In this document: positions 1 to 58,950 of the stretch, in pieces
Numbering within the stretch: the first letter of the stretch is position 1
Layout of the letters: every line of letters starts with the position of its first letter
Assembly: GCA_023228825.1 (NCBI GenBank)
Contig: JALOAL010000001.1
Span: 43,381-107,380, forward strand
Length of the DNA: 64,000 nucleotides
Source: Dehalococcoidia bacterium
GTDB taxonomy: Bacteria; Chloroflexota; Dehalococcoidia; UBA2979
Reading direction: 5' to 3'
Made by a program: the position numbers and the translations under genes
Notes under the pieces: model-generated
Databases searched by the model: none
Told to the model about the DNA's origin: nothing
The model's input: the letters and a program-made list of their open reading frames with translations, nothing else

Positions 1-231
1 CTCATGGCCGGCTTCTCCGTCGTCCAGGACGCCTCGACCGGGCGGGCGTACGAGGCGGCTCGCGGGGTGGGGGTGGCGGTGCAGAAGCACATGCGCGAGG
101 AGAGCGGCGTCATCACTCGCATCGTGGGCGACAGCGTGCTCTTCGCACCGCCGCTCGTCATCGACGCGTCCGAAGTGGACCAGATCGTCGACGCTGCGGC
201 GAAGGCCGTGCGCGCAGTGACCGAGGGCTGA
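1..231 (+). CDS. C-terminal fragment of a class-III (omega/acetylornithine-type) PLP-dependent aminotransferase; 5' end lies outside the window
   Basis: The ORF is open from position 1 in frame 1. Its C-terminal sequence (VVQDASTGRAYEAARGVGVAVQKH...IVGDSVLFAPPLVIDASEVDQIVDA) is typical of aminotransferase class III tails. Confidence 0.55.
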   Translation, partial: LMAGFSVVQDASTGRAYEAARGVGVAVQKHMREESGVITRIVGDSVLFAPPLVIDASEVDQIVDAAAKAVRAVTEG

Positions 232-600
232 CGCGAGGCTGAGTGTGACATCGGAGCCGGCGCGACCGGCTCCGATGTCTCCTTCGTGGCCATCACGCTA
301 CGGGAGGAGCGGCCCCGCGGCCCGACTTTCCATGCCCGATCCAGTCGTCCGAGGCGCCTCGGTGCGAGGGGGGGATGGCCGGCCGGACGACGTAAGAGAA
401 ATGCTGAGGTTGGTGAGCGGGTGATTGACAAGCCATGATGCCGTCTCTAGCCTGTGCCGCAGGAAAGGGGGTGATGCTCGTGGCTGATGCCAGTCATAGT
501 CACATTTCGTTGATGGGGAAGGGCATCTTCAAGGAGGTGCTCGAAACCTAGCCCCCGATCGAGTGACTAACAGGAGAGGGAGCCGCTTGCGGCTCCCTCT

Positions 601-668
601 CTGCTTGTCTGGGCTTCTGCTCGTCTGGGCTTCTGCTCGTCTGGGCTTCTGCTCGTCTGGGCTTGCCC
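601..668. repeat. Tandem direct repeat of a 16-bp unit (gtctgggcttctgctc), about 4.2 copies, just upstream of birA
   Basis: Read directly: ctgctt-gtctgggcttctgctc x3, then gtctgggcttgcccc. Confidence 0.9.
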
Positions 669-684
669 CGCTTCCCATCCCTCG

Positions 685-1518
685 ATGTCAGGCCCGGCGA
701 TCGTTCGTCCCGAACCCGCTAGCCTCTCTCCCATGCCATTCGACCACGATCGCTACCAGGCCCTGCGCCGCAGCCAGACTGTCGGCGTGAAGGTCGCCCA
801 CCTCGAAGAGACCGGCTCCACCATGGACGACGCGCGCGCGGGCGCCGAGGCCGGGCGCGCGGCGGGCACCGCCTACGTGGCCGCCTCGCAGCGCGCGGGG
901 CGTGGCCGCATGGGGCGCTCGTGGGTGTCCGAGCCGGGCGCGGGGCTTTGGGTGACGTACCACCTCCGTGCGCGGCAGGGTGCCCCGCTGCTCTCCCTGG
1001 CGGGAGGCCTCGCCGTGGCGGAGGCGCTGGAGGTGGTGGCCGGCCTGCGCTGCGAACTGAAGTGGCCCAACGACGTGCAGCACGGCGGCCGCAAGATCTC
1101 CGGCGTGCTGGCGGAGGCGCGCCCCGCGGCGGACGGCGTCACGGACGTCTTCCTGGGCATCGGCATCAACCTGCGCACGCCCTCCGGCCTGCCGGAGGAC
1201 ATACTGGCGGCCGCCACCAGCGTGGAGCAGGAAGGCCGGCCCGCGCCCTCGCGGGAGGCGCTGCTCGCCGGACTGTCGAGCGCCCTCGAGGTGCGCGCGG
1301 GCCAGGCGGAGCGGGACTCGGCCGGGCTGGTGGCCGGCTGGCGCGCGCGCCTGAACACGCTGGGGCGCCGGGTGCGGCTCTCGCTGCCGGACGGCAGCGT
1401 GGTGGAGGGCGACGCCGTCGATATCACGGCGGACGGCGCGCTCGTGATCGAGGCGGACGGGGAGCGGCGCACGTTCACGGCCGGCGACGTGACCAACGCC
1501 CGTACGGTCGAGGCGTAG
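685..1518 (+). CDS. birA: Biotin--[acetyl-CoA-carboxylase] ligase, group I (no N-terminal HTH); alternative start at 733
   Basis: Carries the GRGRMGRSW biotin-ligase signature, a KWPNDV/GGRKISGVL core and a C-terminal SH3-like domain. Length is about 260-277 aa. Confidence 0.8.
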   Translation: MSGPAIVRPEPASLSPMPFDHDRYQALRRSQTVGVKVAHLEETGSTMDDARAGAEAGRAAGTAYVAASQRAGRGRMGRSWVSEPGAGLWVTYHLRARQGAPLLSLAGGLAVAEALEVVAGLRCELKWPNDVQHGGRKISGVLAEARPAADGVTDVFLGIGINLRTPSGLPEDILAAATSVEQEGRPAPSREALLAGLSSALEVRAGQAERDSAGLVAGWRARLNTLGRRVRLSLPDGSVVEGDAVDITADGALVIEADGERRTFTAGDVTNARTVEA

Positions 1519-1597
1519 GCGCGGCCCCGAGGCGCCGTCTCGGGGCCCCGGCGTACTGCTTGATCGTGCGGAGGGCGCTCCGTAGTCTCAGAGCACG

Positions 1598-1687
1598 ATG
1601 GAACGGAACGCACACGCGGCGCAGGCTCATCTGCACGGGCATGGTCATCACCATGTCACGCCGTCGCGCGCGTTCTTGCTCGCCTAG
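1598..1687 (+). promoter_or_regulatory. His-rich leader peptide ORF (MERNAHAAQAHLHGHGHHHVTPSRAFLLA*) upstream of the his operon; putative attenuation leader
   Basis: A 29-codon ORF has 7 His codons within a 9-codon run (cat ctg cac ggg cat ggt cat cac cat). It is followed by a roughly 220-nt GC-rich leader before hisZ. A 9-bp stem hairpin (ggccccgag...ctcggggcc, 1521-1548) sits just after the birA stop. Confidence 0.55.
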
Positions 1688-1906
1688 CCCGTTCCGTCCC
1701 GTTTCAGTCCAGGGACACCCACGGCACCAGCAAGCATGATCGCCGCGGCGGCCAGAGGCCTCGCGGCGTCCCGGCGTGTCCGGCGTCTCGTGAGGTTGTC
1801 GCGCAGTGGCGAAACCGCGAAGGGACGTATGATGCCAGCCAGCCCAACCGCACCCGGGACCAGCCCAGCCGGGCCCTCGGTCGACACGTCACCCCAGGAG
1901 GACGCC

Positions 1907-2890
1907 ATGCCGGACCGCGGCCTGCGAAGTCACGGAATGCGCGACCTGGGTCCGGCCGACATGGCCGAGTTCCGCCGCGTGGAGCGCGCCTTCCTCGATG
2001 TGACGGCAGTCGCCGGCTTCCGCGAGGTGCGCACGCCGGCGATTGAGCCCCTGCACCTGTACAGCGCGTCCGGCACGCTCTCGCCGCAGGCCCTGGATCG
2101 CGTCTACTCGTTCCTGGACTGGGACGGCTGGAGCGGCGAGCGCGTGGTGTTGCGGCCGGACACCACGGTGGCCGTGGCCCGCTGGTATGGCGACCTGCGC
2201 GATCCCGGCGTGGAGCGCGTCTCCTACGCGCAGCCGGTCTTCCGCTTCGCCGCAGAGGGCGACCGCGAGGTCTGGCAGTTCGGCGTCGAACTCTTCGGCG
2301 CCGCCTCGGACGTCGCGGACGCGGAGTTGCTGACGCTGGCGCAGGCGTTCCTGGACGCGCTGGGGCTGGCGGACGTGACGTGCGAAGTGGCCCACGCCGG
2401 GCTGGCGCGCGCCGCCTTCGCCGCCGCCGGGCTCAGCACGCGCGAGCAACTGGCCGCCTACGACCGCATGCTGGAGGGCGACGCGAGCGTCACGGCGGAA
2501 CTGGCTGCCACGCACCCAGAGGCGGCGGCCGCGATCCGTCTGCTGGCGGAGATCGACGGGTCCTCCGCGGGCTACATCGCCAACCTGCGCGCGGCCATGC
2601 CGGCGGTGATCGGTGGTGCGGAGCCGGCGCTGGACGACCTGGACCGCGCCGTCCGCGCCCTGGACGAGGCCGGCGTGCCGTATCGCATCCTGAGCGGCAC
2701 GGCCCGCAACTTCGAGTACTACACGGGAGTGACCTTCCGCTTCCTCTCTGGCGGCCAGACGGTGCTGGTGGGCGGACGCTACGACCGCCTGTCCGAGACC
2801 CTGGGCGGACCGGACGCGCCTGGCTGTGGCTGGGCGGCCAATGCCCTCACGCTGGTGCAGGCCTCCGCGGCGGATCGAGACGCCTCGTGA
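1907..2890 (+). CDS. hisZ: ATP phosphoribosyltransferase regulatory subunit HisZ (histidyl-tRNA synthetase paralogue)
   Basis: Class-II aaRS-like core (FREVRTPAIEPLHLY...RYDRL) without an anticodon-binding domain. It lies immediately upstream of hisG with a 4-nt GTGA overlap. Start chosen at the in-frame ATG 1907. Confidence 0.75.
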   Translation: MPDRGLRSHGMRDLGPADMAEFRRVERAFLDVTAVAGFREVRTPAIEPLHLYSASGTLSPQALDRVYSFLDWDGWSGERVVLRPDTTVAVARWYGDLRDPGVERVSYAQPVFRFAAEGDREVWQFGVELFGAASDVADAELLTLAQAFLDALGLADVTCEVAHAGLARAAFAAAGLSTREQLAAYDRMLEGDASVTAELAATHPEAAAAIRLLAEIDGSSAGYIANLRAAMPAVIGGAEPALDDLDRAVRALDEAGVPYRILSGTARNFEYYTGVTFRFLSGGQTVLVGGRYDRLSETLGGPDAPGCGWAANALTLVQASAADRDAS

Positions 2891-4317
2891 GTGCGGGGGG
2901 CTCGGCATCGCCGGTGCGCGTGGCGCTACCTCGGGGCGACCTGCGCGGCCCGGTGGACGCGCACCTGCGCGACGTGGACTTCGTGGTGGAGGGCTACGGT
3001 TCTGGCGCTCGCACCTACCGCTTCGAGGTGGAGCGCCGCCCGGGCATCGCCGTGCGCGTGTTCTCGGACCAGGACATCCCCATCCAGGTGGCGCTGGGCC
3101 ACTACGACCTCGGCATTGCCAGCCGCACCTGGATCGACGAACTGCTGGTGAAGCACCACCTGGACTCCGTGGTGCCGCTGCGCCAGATCGACGTGGCTGG
3201 CGAGGACCTGGTGGCGGCCGGCGCGCCGGGGACCACGCTGGCGGAGGTCGCCTCGGCCGGCGCGGTGCGCGTGGCCACGGAGTACCCCAACCTGGCGCAG
3301 CACTACTTGGCCCACGCCCGCGTCCCGGACTACCGCCTGTTCGAGGTCTGGGCGCAGGCGGAGGCGTGGCCTCCGCAGGACGCGGAAATGGCAGTGGCCA
3401 CCCGTCGCGCCGCAGACAAAGAAGGCCTGGAGGTCTACGGCGAGGTCCACCGCGGCGGCGTCTGGCTGATCGCCAACCGCGAGGCGCTGGCCCGGCGCGA
3501 CCTGTCGGCGGCGCTCGAGCCGTTGTTGCGCATCCCGCTGGCGCCGGAGGCGGGCGGCCTGGTGGCGCCGCCGCCGCTGGAGGCCGCCACGCGACGCCTG
3601 GCGTCGCCCCCGCCGGAGCGCGAGGTGTTCCGCATCGCCGTGCCGGACGGCCACGCACAGCGGCACACTGTGGCTGCGCTGGCGGATGCCGGCATCTCCT
3701 TCCCCGGCTACGCGGAGGACTCCGCGCAGCGTTACCCGGACTCCGGCCTGGACGACGTGCAGGTGAAGGTGATGCGGCCGCAGGACATGCCGCGTGCGGT
3801 CGCCCTCGGACAGATCGACCTGGCATTGACGGGGCGGGACTGGCTGCGGGCGTTCCTGGCCACGTTCCCGGCCGCGCCGGTGGTGGAGTTGTGCGACCTG
3901 AAGCGCTCCAAGTACCTGCTGGGCGCCGTGGTGACGGAGGACCTCCCGGTCGCCACGATCGACGAGGCGGTGGCTTACTGGCGGCGCGACGACCCGGAGT
4001 ATCCGATCCGGGTGGCGTCTGAGTACGTGTCGCTGGCGGACGAGTACGCCCGCTCCCGGCACCTGGGGAAGTACCGCGTAATCCCCATCTCCGGCGCGTC
4101 CGAGGGCTTTGTCCCGGAGGACGCGGAGATCTTGATCGAGGGCACGGAGACGGGCACCACGCTACGGGCCAACCGGCTGACTATGATCGATGTGATCATG
4201 GAGTCCACCAACTGCGCCATTGGCGCGGCCACCAGGCCTGCGGGCCGGCGTGGCGACCTGCGCGACGACTTTGTCGCGCGCATGGCGACTGCGGCGGCCG
4301 CAACCACGGCCGGCTAG
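2887..4317 (+). CDS. hisG: ATP phosphoribosyltransferase, unusual tandem form: a degenerate N-terminal HisG-like domain plus a complete short-form HisG catalytic domain
   Basis: The N-terminal half has VRVALPRGDL, VFSDQDIPIQVALGHYDLGIASRTW and VATEYPNL. The C-terminal half has FRIAVPDGH, VMRPQDMPRAVALGQIDLALTGRDW, IRVASEYVSLADEY and ILIEGTETGTTLRANRL, the PRPP-binding region. GTG start overlaps the hisZ stop. Confidence 0.75.
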   Translation: MSAGGSASPVRVALPRGDLRGPVDAHLRDVDFVVEGYGSGARTYRFEVERRPGIAVRVFSDQDIPIQVALGHYDLGIASRTWIDELLVKHHLDSVVPLRQIDVAGEDLVAAGAPGTTLAEVASAGAVRVATEYPNLAQHYLAHARVPDYRLFEVWAQAEAWPPQDAEMAVATRRAADKEGLEVYGEVHRGGVWLIANREALARRDLSAALEPLLRIPLAPEAGGLVAPPPLEAATRRLASPPPEREVFRIAVPDGHAQRHTVAALADAGISFPGYAEDSAQRYPDSGLDDVQVKVMRPQDMPRAVALGQIDLALTGRDWLRAFLATFPAAPVVELCDLKRSKYLLGAVVTEDLPVATIDEAVAYWRRDDPEYPIRVASEYVSLADEYARSRHLGKYRVIPISGASEGFVPEDAEILIEGTETGTTLRANRLTMIDVIMESTNCAIGAATRPAGRRGDLRDDFVARMATAAAATTAG

Positions 4318-4354
4318 GCGCGGACGCGGGAAGGCGAGGGCAAGGGACGCGGGC

Positions 4355-5104
4355 ATGCCATCGCTGGGATCGCACCTCAAGCGAGCGCGAATCGTCGCGG
4401 ACCGCCTCGACCTCCCGGAGATCGAGGCGGACCGGGGTGCGTTCTACCTGGGGGCGACGGCGCCGGACATCCGCGTGATCACCCGGCTTGACCGGGAGGT
4501 GACGCACTTCTTCCGCCTGTCCGAACTGGGCGCGCAGGATTCGGTGGCACGCATGTTCCGGGAGCACCCCGGCCTGCAGGCCCCGTCCGGGCTGGACGCG
4601 GCCACCACCGCGTTCGTGGCCGGGTATCTGACGCACCTGGTGCTAGACGAGTCGTTCATCGGCGAGATCTATCGCCCGCACTTCGGGGCGTTCTCCGACA
4701 GGGATGGCGATCCCAAGGCGAACGTCCTGGACCGCGCGCTGCAGTACGAGTTGGACCGCCGCGACCGTGAGGACAGCGGCATGATGGAGGAGATCCGGGC
4801 GGCCATTGCCCGGACGGCGCCCGTGCAGGGCATCCCGTTCATCCAGGACCAGCACCTGGTGGAATGGGCCATCGTCTCGGAGGACGTGGCGGCGCAGCCG
4901 GCGGACTACAGCCGCTTCCGCCGCATGATGATGCGGCACCTCCAGACGGCCGGGTACGACGAAGCAACCATCGAACGCGAGTGCGAGGCCCCCACGGACC
5001 TTGTGCAGGAGGCGTTCGCGATCGTCTCGGAGGAGCGCATCAATCGCTTCTGGCGAGACGCGCAAGACCAGATGACCGAACGCGTGAGGGGCTACCTCCG
5101 ATGA
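4355..5104 (+). CDS. Uncharacterised protein embedded in the his operon; weak resemblance to the zinc-dependent phospholipase C-like family
   Basis: Its stop overlaps the hisD start (ATGA at 5101-5104). Motifs GSHLKRARIVADRL, FYLGATAPDI and THFF resemble N-terminal motifs of bacterial PLC_Zn-like hypothetical proteins. Confidence 0.4.
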   Translation: MPSLGSHLKRARIVADRLDLPEIEADRGAFYLGATAPDIRVITRLDREVTHFFRLSELGAQDSVARMFREHPGLQAPSGLDAATTAFVAGYLTHLVLDESFIGEIYRPHFGAFSDRDGDPKANVLDRALQYELDRRDREDSGMMEEIRAAIARTAPVQGIPFIQDQHLVEWAIVSEDVAAQPADYSRFRRMMMRHLQTAGYDEATIERECEAPTDLVQEAFAIVSEERINRFWRDAQDQMTERVRGYLR

Positions 5105-6453
5105 CAACTACATCCCCGACCACGGGCGCACTCCGCATTGTGGAGGACGTCCAGCAGGCACGGGAGACCGTGCTGAAGCGTGAGCCCGTGGCGGACCCGG
5201 TGCTGCCGGACGCGCTCCAGCAGTCCATCAACGACCTGTGGGGCGAGCCGGTCTCCCCGGCCGACCACGTGCGACGCATCATCGAGGCCGTCCGCACCGA
5301 GGGCGATGCCGCAGTGAAGCGCTTCTCCGAGCAGTTCGACGGGTCGTCGTACACCTCGATCGAGGTGCCGCCGGAGGAGATCGCGGCGGCGTTCGAGCAG
5401 GTGACGCAGGAGCAGCACGACGCCATCGCCTTCGCGGTGTGGCGGGTGCGGCGATACCACGAGATGCAGATGGAGCACGCGCCCACGTCGTTCAAGACGC
5501 GCGGCGCCGGGATGATGGTGCGCCCGCTGAAGATCGCCGGCGTCTACATGACTGGCGCGGATGCGGCGCTGCCCTCGTCCGTGGTGCACACGGCGGTGCC
5601 CGGCAAGGTAGCCGGCGTGGACGACATCATCGGCGTGACATCCGCACGCGCGGACGGCAGCGTGAACCCGCTCAAGATCGTGGCGGCACGCCTCTCCGGT
5701 ATCGAGCGCATCTTCCGCGCCTCCGGGGCGCAGGGGCTCGCGGCGCTGGCGTACGGCACCGAGTCGATCCCGCGCGTGGACAAGATCTTCGGGCCCGGCG
5801 GCGTTTTCGTGACGCTGGCCAAGCAGCAGTTGTTCGGCAAGGTGGGCATCGACGCGCTCTACGGCCCCACGGAGACGCTGGTGCTGGCGGACGATAGCGC
5901 CTCGCCAGACCTCGCCGCTGCGGACCTGCTGGCACAGGCCGAGCACGACGTGCTCGCCACGCCGGTGCTGATCACGCTCTCCCGAGGCATGGCGGAGGCG
6001 ATCGCGGAGCAGGTGGACCTGCAACTGCCCGTGCTAGAGCGTGAGTCCATCGCGCGCGCGGCTATCGCCCGCGGCGGCGCGGTGGTGGCCGCGGACCTGG
6101 ACCAGGCGCTGGAACTGGCCAACGAGTTCGCGCCGGAGCACCTCTGTCTGCTGGTGCAGGACGGTGAGTCGCTGTTGCCTCGGATCCGCTCCGCCGGCGG
6201 GGTGTTCGTGGGCGAGTCGTCTCCGGAGGTACTGGGGGACTACACGGCCGGCCCCAGCCACGTCATGCCCACGGGCGGGTCCGCCCGCTTTGCCTCGCCG
6301 TTGTCGGTGCTGGACTTCCTGCGCGTGATGTCCGTGGTGCACCTGGACGAAGAGGACGTGCAGCGCCTAGGCCCGTTCGCCGCCGACCTGGCGCGGGCGG
6401 AGGGCCTGACCGCGCACGCGCACAGCATTGAGCGACGGCTGGAGGGCCGCTGA
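5101..6453 (+). CDS. hisD: Histidinol dehydrogenase
   Basis: Full-length HisD-like sequence (VEDVQQARETV..., GPGGVFVTLAKQQLFGKVGIDALYGPTE, AEHDV, HLDEEDV). Sits in his-operon context. Confidence 0.9.
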   Translation: MTTTSPTTGALRIVEDVQQARETVLKREPVADPVLPDALQQSINDLWGEPVSPADHVRRIIEAVRTEGDAAVKRFSEQFDGSSYTSIEVPPEEIAAAFEQVTQEQHDAIAFAVWRVRRYHEMQMEHAPTSFKTRGAGMMVRPLKIAGVYMTGADAALPSSVVHTAVPGKVAGVDDIIGVTSARADGSVNPLKIVAARLSGIERIFRASGAQGLAALAYGTESIPRVDKIFGPGGVFVTLAKQQLFGKVGIDALYGPTETLVLADDSASPDLAAADLLAQAEHDVLATPVLITLSRGMAEAIAEQVDLQLPVLERESIARAAIARGGAVVAADLDQALELANEFAPEHLCLLVQDGESLLPRIRSAGGVFVGESSPEVLGDYTAGPSHVMPTGGSARFASPLSVLDFLRVMSVVHLDEEDVQRLGPFAADLARAEGLTAHAHSIERRLEGR

Positions 6454-37219: not shown

Positions 37220-37294
37220 GCCCCCGTAGCTCAGGGGATAGAGCACCGGCCTCCGGAGCCGGGTGCGCAGGTTCGAATCCTGCCGGGGGTACCA
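37220..37294 (+). tRNA. tRNA-Arg (anticodon CCG), includes encoded CCA
   Basis: Cloverleaf read manually: acceptor GCCCCCG/CGGGGGT, D-arm TAGCTCAGGGGATAGAGCA, anticodon stem CCGGC/GCCGG with loop CTCCGGA, T-arm GCAGG-TTCGAAT-CCTGC, then ACCA. Confidence 0.8.
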
Positions 37295-44000: not shown

Positions 44001-44077
44001 TGGTCGGGGCGCGCGGATTTGAACCGCGGGCCTCTGCGTCCCAAACGCAGCGCTCTGCCAGGCTGAGCTACGCCCCG
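44001..44077 (-). tRNA. tRNA-Pro (anticodon TGG), includes encoded CCA
   Basis: Reverse complement reads CGGGGCGTAGCTCAGCCTGGCAGAGCGCTGCGTTTGGGACGCAGAGGCCCGCGGTTCAAATCCGCGCGCCCCGACCA, with anticodon loop TTTGGGA. Confidence 0.8.
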
Positions 44078-58795: not shown

Positions 58796-58950
58796 TAAAA
58801 AGACCTCCCCATCAGTGGGGAGGCAACGCCGCAAACCGGGCCGGGGGAGGAATAGCCATGGAAGCACTCCGGAGAGTGCGCGGCCAGAAGTGCGCCGGAG
58901 CGCGGGGTCCTCATTCGAGCGTTCCTTCCCGGCCTCACTGGACCGGCTTA
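58796..58950 (-). promoter_or_regulatory. pyr leader/attenuator: PyrR-binding loop (GGUCCAGUGAGGCC) followed by a GC-rich hairpin with a U-tract (intrinsic terminator) immediately upstream of pyrR
   Basis: The minus-strand RNA reads ...uaagccGGUCCAGUGAGGCCgggaagg... (plus 58921-58947), matching the PyrR box RRUCCAGAGAGGCY. The plus-strand hairpin cctcccc-atcag-ggggagg lies at 58804-58823, with AAAAA at 58797-58801 (UUUUU on the RNA). Confidence 0.6.

Follow-up and report, generated by a model that had tools for sequence, protein, structure and literature searches.

The 64-kb stretch of Chloroflexota DNA analyzed here (the window; all coordinates are window positions) carries a short, histidine-rich open reading frame (ORF) in the gap between birA and hisZ, the gene for the regulatory subunit of ATP phosphoribosyltransferase, and by comparison with related loci this leader, together with the RNA helices around it, is a real and conserved cis-regulatory element. 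It likely acts as a ribosome-mediated transcription attenuator that would sense charged tRNA-His and control the operon hisZ-hisG-(ORF)-hisD. The ORF, its conservation, the geometry of the promoter in front of it, two alternative helices and their covariation were observed directly in the window and in related hisZ loci (designated by L-numbers). The original prediction, made on this DNA before, had proposed a leader-peptide attenuator of the hisL type, and it proved right in substance, as both a conserved His mini-ORF and covarying alternative helices were found.

The 29-codon ORF lies between birA and hisZ exactly as first described, with the same sequence and translation (Table 1). Its His residues stand at codons 6, 11, 13, 15, 17, 18, and 19, the first codon at 1613-1615 and the other six within 1628-1654; the total of seven is that given originally, while the claimed density of seven in nine codons has to be lowered to seven in 14, as the densest nine codons (HLHGHGHHH) hold six. 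Across all six frames of the whole window, no other stretch reached at least six His per nine codons, and the leader ORF had the highest His density. Four of its His codons are CAT and three are CAC; the five flanking genes (685-6453) contain 36 CAC and no CAT, the share of CAT among His codons is 17% in a rough gene set of the whole window, and 20 leaders pooled from genomes with 39-78% GC hold 65 CAT and 60 CAC. The use of CAT in the leader could reflect selection for a wobble-decoded codon or for RNA structure, and the codon usage is a further hint of selection on decoding.

For the comparison, 160 related hisZ loci were collected from GTDB species genomes and from a metagenome scan, and in the GTDB loci the 700 nucleotides (nt) upstream of hisZ were scanned for mini-ORFs. 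The 80 best hisZ relatives among the GTDB species genomes were metagenome-assembled genomes (MAGs) labelled Chloroflexota, Chloroflexi or Dehalococcoidia (one label is doubtful and one reads Thermoflexus), and the closest relative in GTDB genomes was 82% identical. Since the hisZ relatives are Chloroflexota and Dehalococcoidia MAGs, the comparison with T-box-controlled actinobacterial his operons that had been drawn originally is not applicable to this genome.

A His-rich mini-ORF was present at the same place in about 28 of the 160 loci, all of them from MAGs labelled Chloroflexota or Dehalococcoidia. It was found by a strict scan in L001-L010, L012, L014, L015, L062, and L078, by relaxed criteria in L013, L017, L021, L031, and L037, by eye in L011 and L084, and by the metagenome scan in L081, L083, L085, L087, and L155; among these, the MAG of L012 bears the label Thermoflexus hugenholtzii. 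The leader peptides hold 2-9 His; the number and positions of these residues vary, as does the remaining sequence, while their presence in the leader and the linkage to hisZ are constant (e.g., MERNSYATPQAHLHGHGHHVAPSGALLLA, MEQGTFSVAASRAHHHGHVHHHTPSRVRALA, MRQTHFVHAHAGHAHSAHAAHAHGTPSCARLHR, MRTIEVYGRHDHMHRVHRNPSRSCAHR, and MFSQANILHHHTHHTLPNHRAWSLCR, the last from a genome with 39% GC). The His-codon run, whose conservation in relatives the original prediction had left to comparative genomics, is thus kept in approximately 28 hisZ loci at the same place, with a drifting peptide. The element is absent from the remaining approximately 130 hisZ loci, mostly Dehalococcoidales with 41-50% identity, and in 16 leader-less hisZ loci scanned with Rfam at gathering thresholds no T-box, His_leader or other riboswitch was detected. 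Variant leaders were noted in L037 (3717-3767), L011 (3711-3794), and L084 (approximately 284-348); in L037 the His run leads directly into a stop codon (MSAQTLAAAAHTAHTH), past which the usual sequence goes on in frame.

The core of the proposed switch is formed by two helices that compete for the same RNA. Segment 2, an almost invariant block in the 3'-terminal part of the leader ORF, starts 4 nt past the last His codon in eight loci, and most loci place its end 10-12 nt ahead of the stop codon. Its sequence is nearly that of the 3' arm of a terminator-like hairpin located downstream, which enables it to pair with the 5' arm of that hairpin, the last part of segment 3. In the window, the pairs of this antiterminator run from G1660-C1752 to G1668-C1744 and, past a 1-base bulge, from G1670-C1743 to G1672-C1741. 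They take up all but the last base of the terminator 5' arm (1741-1752 are covered), which makes the two helices mutually exclusive. The unconstrained fold of the window shows the antiterminator, extended to 1659-1685 / 1727-1753, and the same helix was found by the repeat finder (inverted repeat I1). Alternative terminator and antiterminator structures, for which RNA folding had been advised, therefore exist and carry compensatory base changes; they had been expected within the GC-rich stretch 1688-1906, a placement that has to be amended, as the key segment 2 is still part of the leader ORF, near its 3' end.

Pairing of the 9-bp antiterminator core was counted in two alignments, A2 (14 loci) and A3 (19 loci; L003, which misaligns at the terminator in MAFFT, was excluded and read by eye). 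The proportion of paired cells was 96.0% in A2 and 97.7% in A3, with two pairs (5 cells) and three pairs (8 cells), respectively, changed on both sides. None of 500 shuffles matched the observed pairing or covariation in either alignment, and registers slid along the alignment paired in 22-76% (A2) and 21-78% (A3) of the cells. The both-sided changes comprised G-C to C-G, U-A to C-G, and C-G to U-A: segment 2 GCCGTCGTG occurs with the arm CACGACGGC in L005, L007, and L009, CCCGTCGCG with CGCGACGGG in L014 and L015, and GCCGCCGCG with CGCGGCGG in L013, L017, and L031. With these compensatory changes the leader encodes PSC or PPR instead of PSR, so it is the RNA, and not the peptide, that is under constraint. 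The same logic recurs in L062 and L078 (39-40% GC), whose sequences are unrelated to those of the other loci: here CGGGCTT is both segment 2 and the 3' arm of the hairpin AAGCCCGAGA...TCCCGGGCTT, which is followed by T6.

The terminator-like hairpin itself (segments 3:4) was found across loci as a GC hairpin of the form CGCCGCGACGGC-loop-GCCTCGCGGCG, 23-53 nt past the leader stop, and was predicted in nearly all of 16 loci folded singly. In a fixed register, 81-86% of the cells of its helix were paired, the rest being a bulge and register shifts beyond the reach of the alignment; an automatic best-hairpin search over-extended the stems, and the limits of the hairpin were set by hand. A run of T5-T7 follows it in L004, L012, L014, L015, L084, L085, L062, and L078, as a canonical U-tract (e.g., TTTTTGTG in L004), and weaker U-tracts are present in L002, L006, L008, and L013. 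An nhmmer profile spanning segment 2 to the terminator gave one match per locus in 22 loci and a single match in the window (1642-1781).

Upstream of the leader, all 23 high-GC loci share a promoter-like arrangement, TTGnnn-(16-18 nt, mostly 17)-TAnnnT-(7-10 nt)-ATG, represented in the window by P1 with 9 nt between the -10 box and the ATG. The pattern TTGAnn-16..18-TAnnnT-6..11-(A/G)TG has a single occurrence on both strands of the window, at the leader ORF. Sigma-70 promoters usually start transcription 6-8 nt past the -10 box; with only 7-10 nt from the end of the -10 box to the ATG and no Shine-Dalgarno sequence in front of the latter, the leader mRNA is probably leaderless or begins with 0-3 nt ahead of its start codon. 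The Shine-Dalgarno of the leader ORF had been called weak, and indeed no usable one was found 5' of the ATG, which the position of the promoter only 9 nt away would explain. The low-GC relatives L062 and L078 differ in having a 5' untranslated region (UTR) of 27-35 nt with GGAG. A scanner for consensus promoters and terminators reported nothing in 1-3000, since it demands four matches out of six in each hexamer, which P1 does not reach, and a U-tract, which the hairpin lacks; the two elements were recognized solely through the comparison with relatives.

A third helix can form between segment 1, which is the AUG-containing 5' end of the leader mRNA, and both segment 2 and a stretch just past the stop codon; it would act as an anti-antiterminator. 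Its strands in the window are 1598-1621 on one side and 1659-1676 plus 1689-1698 on the other (free energy, dG, -30.7; z -3.2 against shuffles), and in L078 the 1:2 pairing reaches z -3.0. The His run lies in the loop between the strands of segments 1 and 2. The 1:2, 2:3, and 3:4 helices of the window were all recovered independently by the repeat finder. When a 30-nt ribosome footprint was masked, a crude thermodynamic test in a system where kinetic co-transcriptional folding matters, 7 of 16 loci showed the expected switch, folding the terminator when the ribosome was at the stop codon and the antiterminator when it was on the His codons (L002, L003, L004, L005, L006, L008, and L062). Folded as a whole, 1519-1920 did not exceed shuffles in stability (z -1.2), and nothing can therefore be read from bulk folding energy.

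The course of events proposed for this element, from the transcription start through stalling and termination to the response to histidine, is drawn from its anatomy and from the established attenuation model (summarized in PMC9413887). Transcription from P1 would start at the leader AUG or a few nt from it, and a ribosome would load onto the leaderless mRNA. With plentiful histidine, the ribosome would pass the His codons and segment 2 and reach the stop codon; behind it, segment 2 (1659-1673) would re-pair with segment 1 (1598-1621), segment 3, then unpaired, would fold into the 3:4 hairpin (1741-1768), and the polymerase would stop before hisZ. With scarce His-tRNA, the ribosome would stall in 1628-1654, between segments 1 and 2, keeping both apart, and segment 2 would pair with segment 3 once this is made, so that the terminator is blocked and the polymerase continues into hisZ.

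Table 1. Position and description of the leader, its RNA segments and the neighboring features in the window
Feature	Position	Strand	Description
GC hairpin right after the birA stop	1520-1550	+	Stem GGCCCCGAG 1523-1531 / CTCGGGGCC 1539-1547; repeat-finder arms 1520-1534 / 1536-1550 (I4)
Promoter P1	1560-1588	+	-35 TTGATC 1560-1565, 17-nt spacer, -10 TAGTCT 1583-1588; geometry conserved in relatives
Leader ORF	1598-1687	+	Between birA and hisZ; 29 codons, ATG to TAG, product MERNAHAAQAHLHGHGHHHVTPSRAFLLA; reads ATG GAA CGG AAC GCA CAC GCG GCG CAG GCT CAT CTG CAC GGG CAT GGT CAT CAC CAT GTC ACG CCG TCG CGC GCG TTC TTG CTC GCC TAG
Segment 1 (putative anti-antiterminator strand, helix H1)	1598-1621	+	AUG-containing 5' end of the leader mRNA; can pair with segment 2 and the post-stop stretch; repeat finder I5, I6, I7
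Segment 2	1659-1673	+	Core GCCGTCGCG at 1660-1668 with the codons for Pro-Ser-Arg; block invariant across alignments A1-A3
Post-stop stretch	1689-1700	+	CCGTTCCGTCCC; complementary to the first leader codons GGAACGGAACG 1600-1610; I5 91%, I6 90% complementary
Segment 3 (antiterminator 3' arm)	1729-1753	+	Extended pairing of 1729-1750 with 1659-1680; last 13 nt (1741-1753) are the terminator 5' arm; minimum free energy (MFE) fold, repeat finder I1, covariation
Terminator-like hairpin	1741-1768	+	CGCCGCGGCGGCC, loop AGA, GGCCTCGCGGCG; arms 1741-1753 / 1757-1768; dG -21.7; repeat finder I2
Short direct repeat	1764-1787	+	CGGCGTCC, 2.9 copies; occupies the position of the U-tract of relatives
Conserved motif before hisZ	1819-1834	+	GAAGGGAC-GTATGATG (general form GAAGGGAC-GTAnAATG); Shine-Dalgarno and in-frame hisZ start, or -10 box
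hisZ (ATP phosphoribosyltransferase regulatory subunit)	1832-2890	+	MPDRG start 1907, possible extended start 1832

Five points weigh against an attenuator of this kind in the window. First, intrinsic termination normally needs a U-tract, and none is found 3' of the hairpin in the window or in L001, L081, L087, L005, L007, and L009; the tail reads TCCCGGCGTGTCC in the window and L001, and the tails of L081 and L087 are equally U-poor. Second, the pairing between segments 1 and 2 is modest against shuffles in many loci (mean z -1.2 over 20 loci). Third, the MFE fold of the window flips to the antiterminator for only some stalls (with His13 in the A site, and not with His15, His17 or His19). Fourth, L011 and L084 have only two His codons, yet keep the promoter, segment 2, and the terminator. 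Fifth, a conserved -10-like hexamer (1828-1833), located 3' of the terminator, could be a promoter that bypasses the attenuator.

The missing U-tract bears most directly on how the element acts, and for this particular genome we lean only slightly towards factor-independent intrinsic termination. In the first and main alternative to be weighed, the same ribosome-stall sensor would operate and its output in the high-GC clade would be termination or pausing assisted by factors (NusG/NusA or Rho), or would be translational, through access to the hisZ ribosome binding site; we consider this unlikely. It would account for the hairpins without U-tract listed above, and canonical U-tract terminators are not enriched in the window at large (10 found, approximately 13 expected from shuffles), so the genome may terminate differently or the output of the attenuator may have shifted. 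Precedents for both forms of output are available, as leaderless leader peptides with hairpins lacking a U-rich stretch were described in Streptomyces lividans (PMC8079986) and leaderless attenuators made of short ORFs (sORFs) that sequester the ribosome binding site in mycobacteria (10.1101/834739). On the other side, relatives with the same helices carry textbook terminators, which makes transcription termination the simplest ancestral mechanism. One of the few textbook intrinsic terminators of the window, GCCTCCCCACTGATGGGGAGGT followed by CTTTTTATGT, lies at 58803-58824 on the minus strand and indicates that this genome can carry U-tract terminators.

Two specific versions of a non-intrinsic output were tried and set aside. 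In the window, CGTCCC (1767-1772) is complementary to GGGACG (1822-1827) in the Shine-Dalgarno-like part of the motif before hisZ, and CGTCCC is kept in L081 and L087. No anti-Shine-Dalgarno pairing that depends on the terminator/antiterminator state was found, however, and sequestration of the Shine-Dalgarno by CGTCCC or GTCC 3' of the hairpin, apparently not state-dependent, is retained only within this alternative. Likewise, the post-stop stretch is C-rich and G-poor with a negative GC skew, as Rho-dependent attenuation would have it, but the simple Rho model regulates in the wrong direction, since stalling of the ribosome would uncover the C-rich region.

The bypass hexamer leads to a second alternative, a decaying relic in this genome, where hisZ would be expressed mainly from a second promoter (-10 TATGAT, 1828-1833) and the leader would no longer regulate. 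The hexamer is part of a conserved motif that can be read either as a Shine-Dalgarno with an upstream in-frame hisZ start (ATG 1832) or as holding the -10 box of that promoter. Its form TAnAAT resembles a -10 box and is conserved in all leader-bearing loci, and leader-less hisZ loci have at the equivalent place a clear promoter, GAATTGTAGG-17/18-TAGAATG, with -35 TTGTAG and -10 TAGAAT separated by 17-18 nt. The ATG of the motif (TTG in L081 and L087), in turn, is in frame with the MPDRG start in the 14 loci counted, at a distance of 39-75 nt and with indels always in multiples of three, which argues for translation. Both roles may be true, in which case the second promoter would give a basal expression that escapes the attenuator. 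The downstream hisZ start at 1907, with its conserved MPDRG, is preceded 6 nt upstream by GGAGGA; it is always ATG or GTG, and its purine-rich Shine-Dalgarno is conserved in nucleotides while the encoded residues vary.

Besides the hexamer, a relic would fit the U-tract lost from the clade of the window and the two-His leaders of L011 and L084, which show that the sensor can erode. We nevertheless regard a relic as quite improbable, given that the window retains seven His codons including four of the otherwise avoided CAT, an intact P1, and intact 1:2, 2:3, and 3:4 helices. The leader-bearing loci have no TTG-type -35 box 5' of the hexamer (partly by reading of alignments), and an in-frame ATG or TTG within the motif is better explained by a translated start than by a promoter alone. 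In the leader-less L016, L019, L022, and L025, the shared promoter-like sequence (GAATTGTAGG-17/18 nt-TAGAATGCG) lies approximately 60-110 nt 5' of hisZ (e.g., 3810-3900 in L019) and is followed by a conserved 5' UTR hairpin, CCCTGCCC-loop-GGGCAGGG, without an Rfam match; in L019, an upstream ORF of 38 codons begins at the ATG of TAGAATG and ends in GTGA on the hisZ start.

That the ORF encodes a functional His-rich micropeptide (e.g., a metal-binding one), or arose by chance, is scarcely credible: although His-rich peptides can bind Ni or Zn and spurious ORFs are many in GC-rich DNA, His richness alone is conserved and not the peptide sequence or the His positions, the best-conserved codons (PSR) change residue along with the compensating base of segment 3, the ORF is strictly linked to hisZ and the terminator and has no protein-family match, and both its promoter-to-ATG pattern and its His density stand out in the window, so that the metal-binding peptide and the chance ORF were both rejected on covariation and synteny.

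The preferred reading, a ribosome-mediated attenuator, was then compared with described systems. A cmscan of 1-6000 against Rfam with E-values up to 10 gave no His_leader (RF00514), T-box or other riboswitch, and a scan of the whole window at gathering thresholds returned two tRNAs only and no His_leader or T-box; by these scans, the element belongs to neither of the two families. It resembles hisL of E. coli, Salmonella, and other gamma-proteobacteria (His_leader) in having a short ORF with His codons before the his operon, where stalling would choose between antiterminator and terminator, and in mixing CAC and CAT codons, as E. coli hisL does. Unlike in hisL, the His residues are interspersed (HxHxHxHHH) instead of seven in a row, their codons occupy the loop that separates segments 1 and 2 instead of being inside segment 1, and three hairpins replace the elaborate A-F scheme of hisL. 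Moreover, the mRNA is here probably leaderless, the first gene is hisZ instead of hisG, the window has no U-tract, and RF00514 is not matched.

By gene context, the closest analogues are the His leader attenuators predicted 5' of hisZ or of the his operon in the Bacillus cereus group, in Clostridioides difficile and its relatives, and in Erysipelotrichales (PMC2965389, PMC9413887, PMC4833913). These were likewise found by comparative genomics outside RF00514 and place a His mini-ORF, followed by terminator/antiterminator hairpins, directly 5' of hisZ; compared by description only, they differ in belonging to another phylum with low GC and in having 3-5 consecutive His codons. By design, the closest analogues are the leaderless attenuators of high-GC Actinobacteria, namely the leaderless leader peptides trpL, leuL, ilvL, thrL, and metL of Streptomyces lividans, several of whose hairpins have no uridine-rich stretch (PMC8079986), and the three-hairpin model of the Corynebacterium glutamicum ilvBNC operon, where the first hairpin is an anti-antiterminator and also hides the mRNA start (PMC11857589). 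Shared features are a leader ORF at the 5' end of the transcript (predicted in our case), the missing Shine-Dalgarno, and the three-hairpin logic, while the actinobacterial systems sense Trp, Leu, Ile/Val, Thr or Met, with no His leader listed (PMC8079986, PMC11857589); the his operon of Corynebacterium is under a T-box (PMC9413887, PMC3896937). The polycysteine sORF attenuators of mycobacteria, whose output is translational (10.1101/834739), are similar in being leaderless (again predicted here), in being rich in codons for the amino acid of the pathway, and in that stalling would remodel the downstream RNA. They differ in that the conserved downstream element is here a terminator hairpin, with a U-tract in many relatives.

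In one large survey, Chloroflexi genomes were too few to judge (PMC4833913). In the searchable full-text literature, no leader-peptide attenuator of his genes and no his regulation was found for Chloroflexi, Chloroflexota or Dehalococcoidia, a literature that leaves many subscription-journal papers outside its coverage, so an earlier prediction is possible. Within that coverage, the suggestion that this may be an unreported instance is borne out for the phylum.

According to NCBIfam, the genes around the element are birA (685-1518), hisZ (start 1907), hisG (2887-4317), an ORF (4352-5104), and hisD (5101-6453). The product of hisG has 476 amino acids (aa), approximately twice the usual short form, with two HisG-matching stretches (the best being residues 249-446), and, encoded next to hisZ, it resembles a short-form HisG that underwent internal duplication or fusion; the GTG start of hisG and the stop of hisZ overlap (GTGA). 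The ORF between hisG and hisD encodes 250 aa, has no NCBIfam match and only a sub-threshold one to Pfam Zn_dep_PLPC (26.0 bits, cut-off 26.8), and is not any known histidine-pathway gene. The hairpin reported originally right behind the birA stop is real, its stem being returned by both the fold and the repeat finder; it has no U-tract, sits just 5' of the leader promoter, and is probably the birA terminator. In the gap 5' of birA, a 16-nt tandem repeat (TCTGCTCGTCTGGGCT, 4.1 copies, 97% match, 600-664) lies directly 3' of a perfect GC hairpin, GAGAGGGAGCC...GGCTCCCTCTC (574-601). The only RNA genes found by Rfam and ARAGORN in the window are those for tRNA-Arg (CCG; 37220-37294, plus strand) and tRNA-Pro (TGG; 44001-44077, minus strand).

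As a tentative and rather unlikely suggestion, the Chloroflexota could have evolved a leaderless three-hairpin histidine attenuator independently, the hairpin could have lost its U-tract in the lineages with the highest GC, and read-through transcripts could give an N-terminally extended HisZ from the ATG within what is the -10 box of relatives. A leaderless attenuator without U-tract would, if true, imply U-tract-independent termination by the RNA polymerase and factors of this phylum, or an output shifted to another level. Three features make the case moderately interesting, namely that translation is probably leaderless, that the U-tract was lost in the highest-GC clade, and that the motif before hisZ can be read as a start codon or as a promoter. 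For the annotation of such genomes, it would add a leader ORF, an operon start, and possibly the start codon of hisZ. The relatives span the range from textbook U-tract terminators to U-tract-free hairpins on one scaffold and thus form a natural experiment on the requirements for a terminator in bacteria of very high GC. More broadly, the element would extend leader-peptide attenuation, and probably leaderless sensory sORFs too, past the Proteobacteria, Firmicutes, and Actinobacteria, and gives a phylum known almost solely from metagenomes a concrete, testable regulatory element of amino acid biosynthesis.

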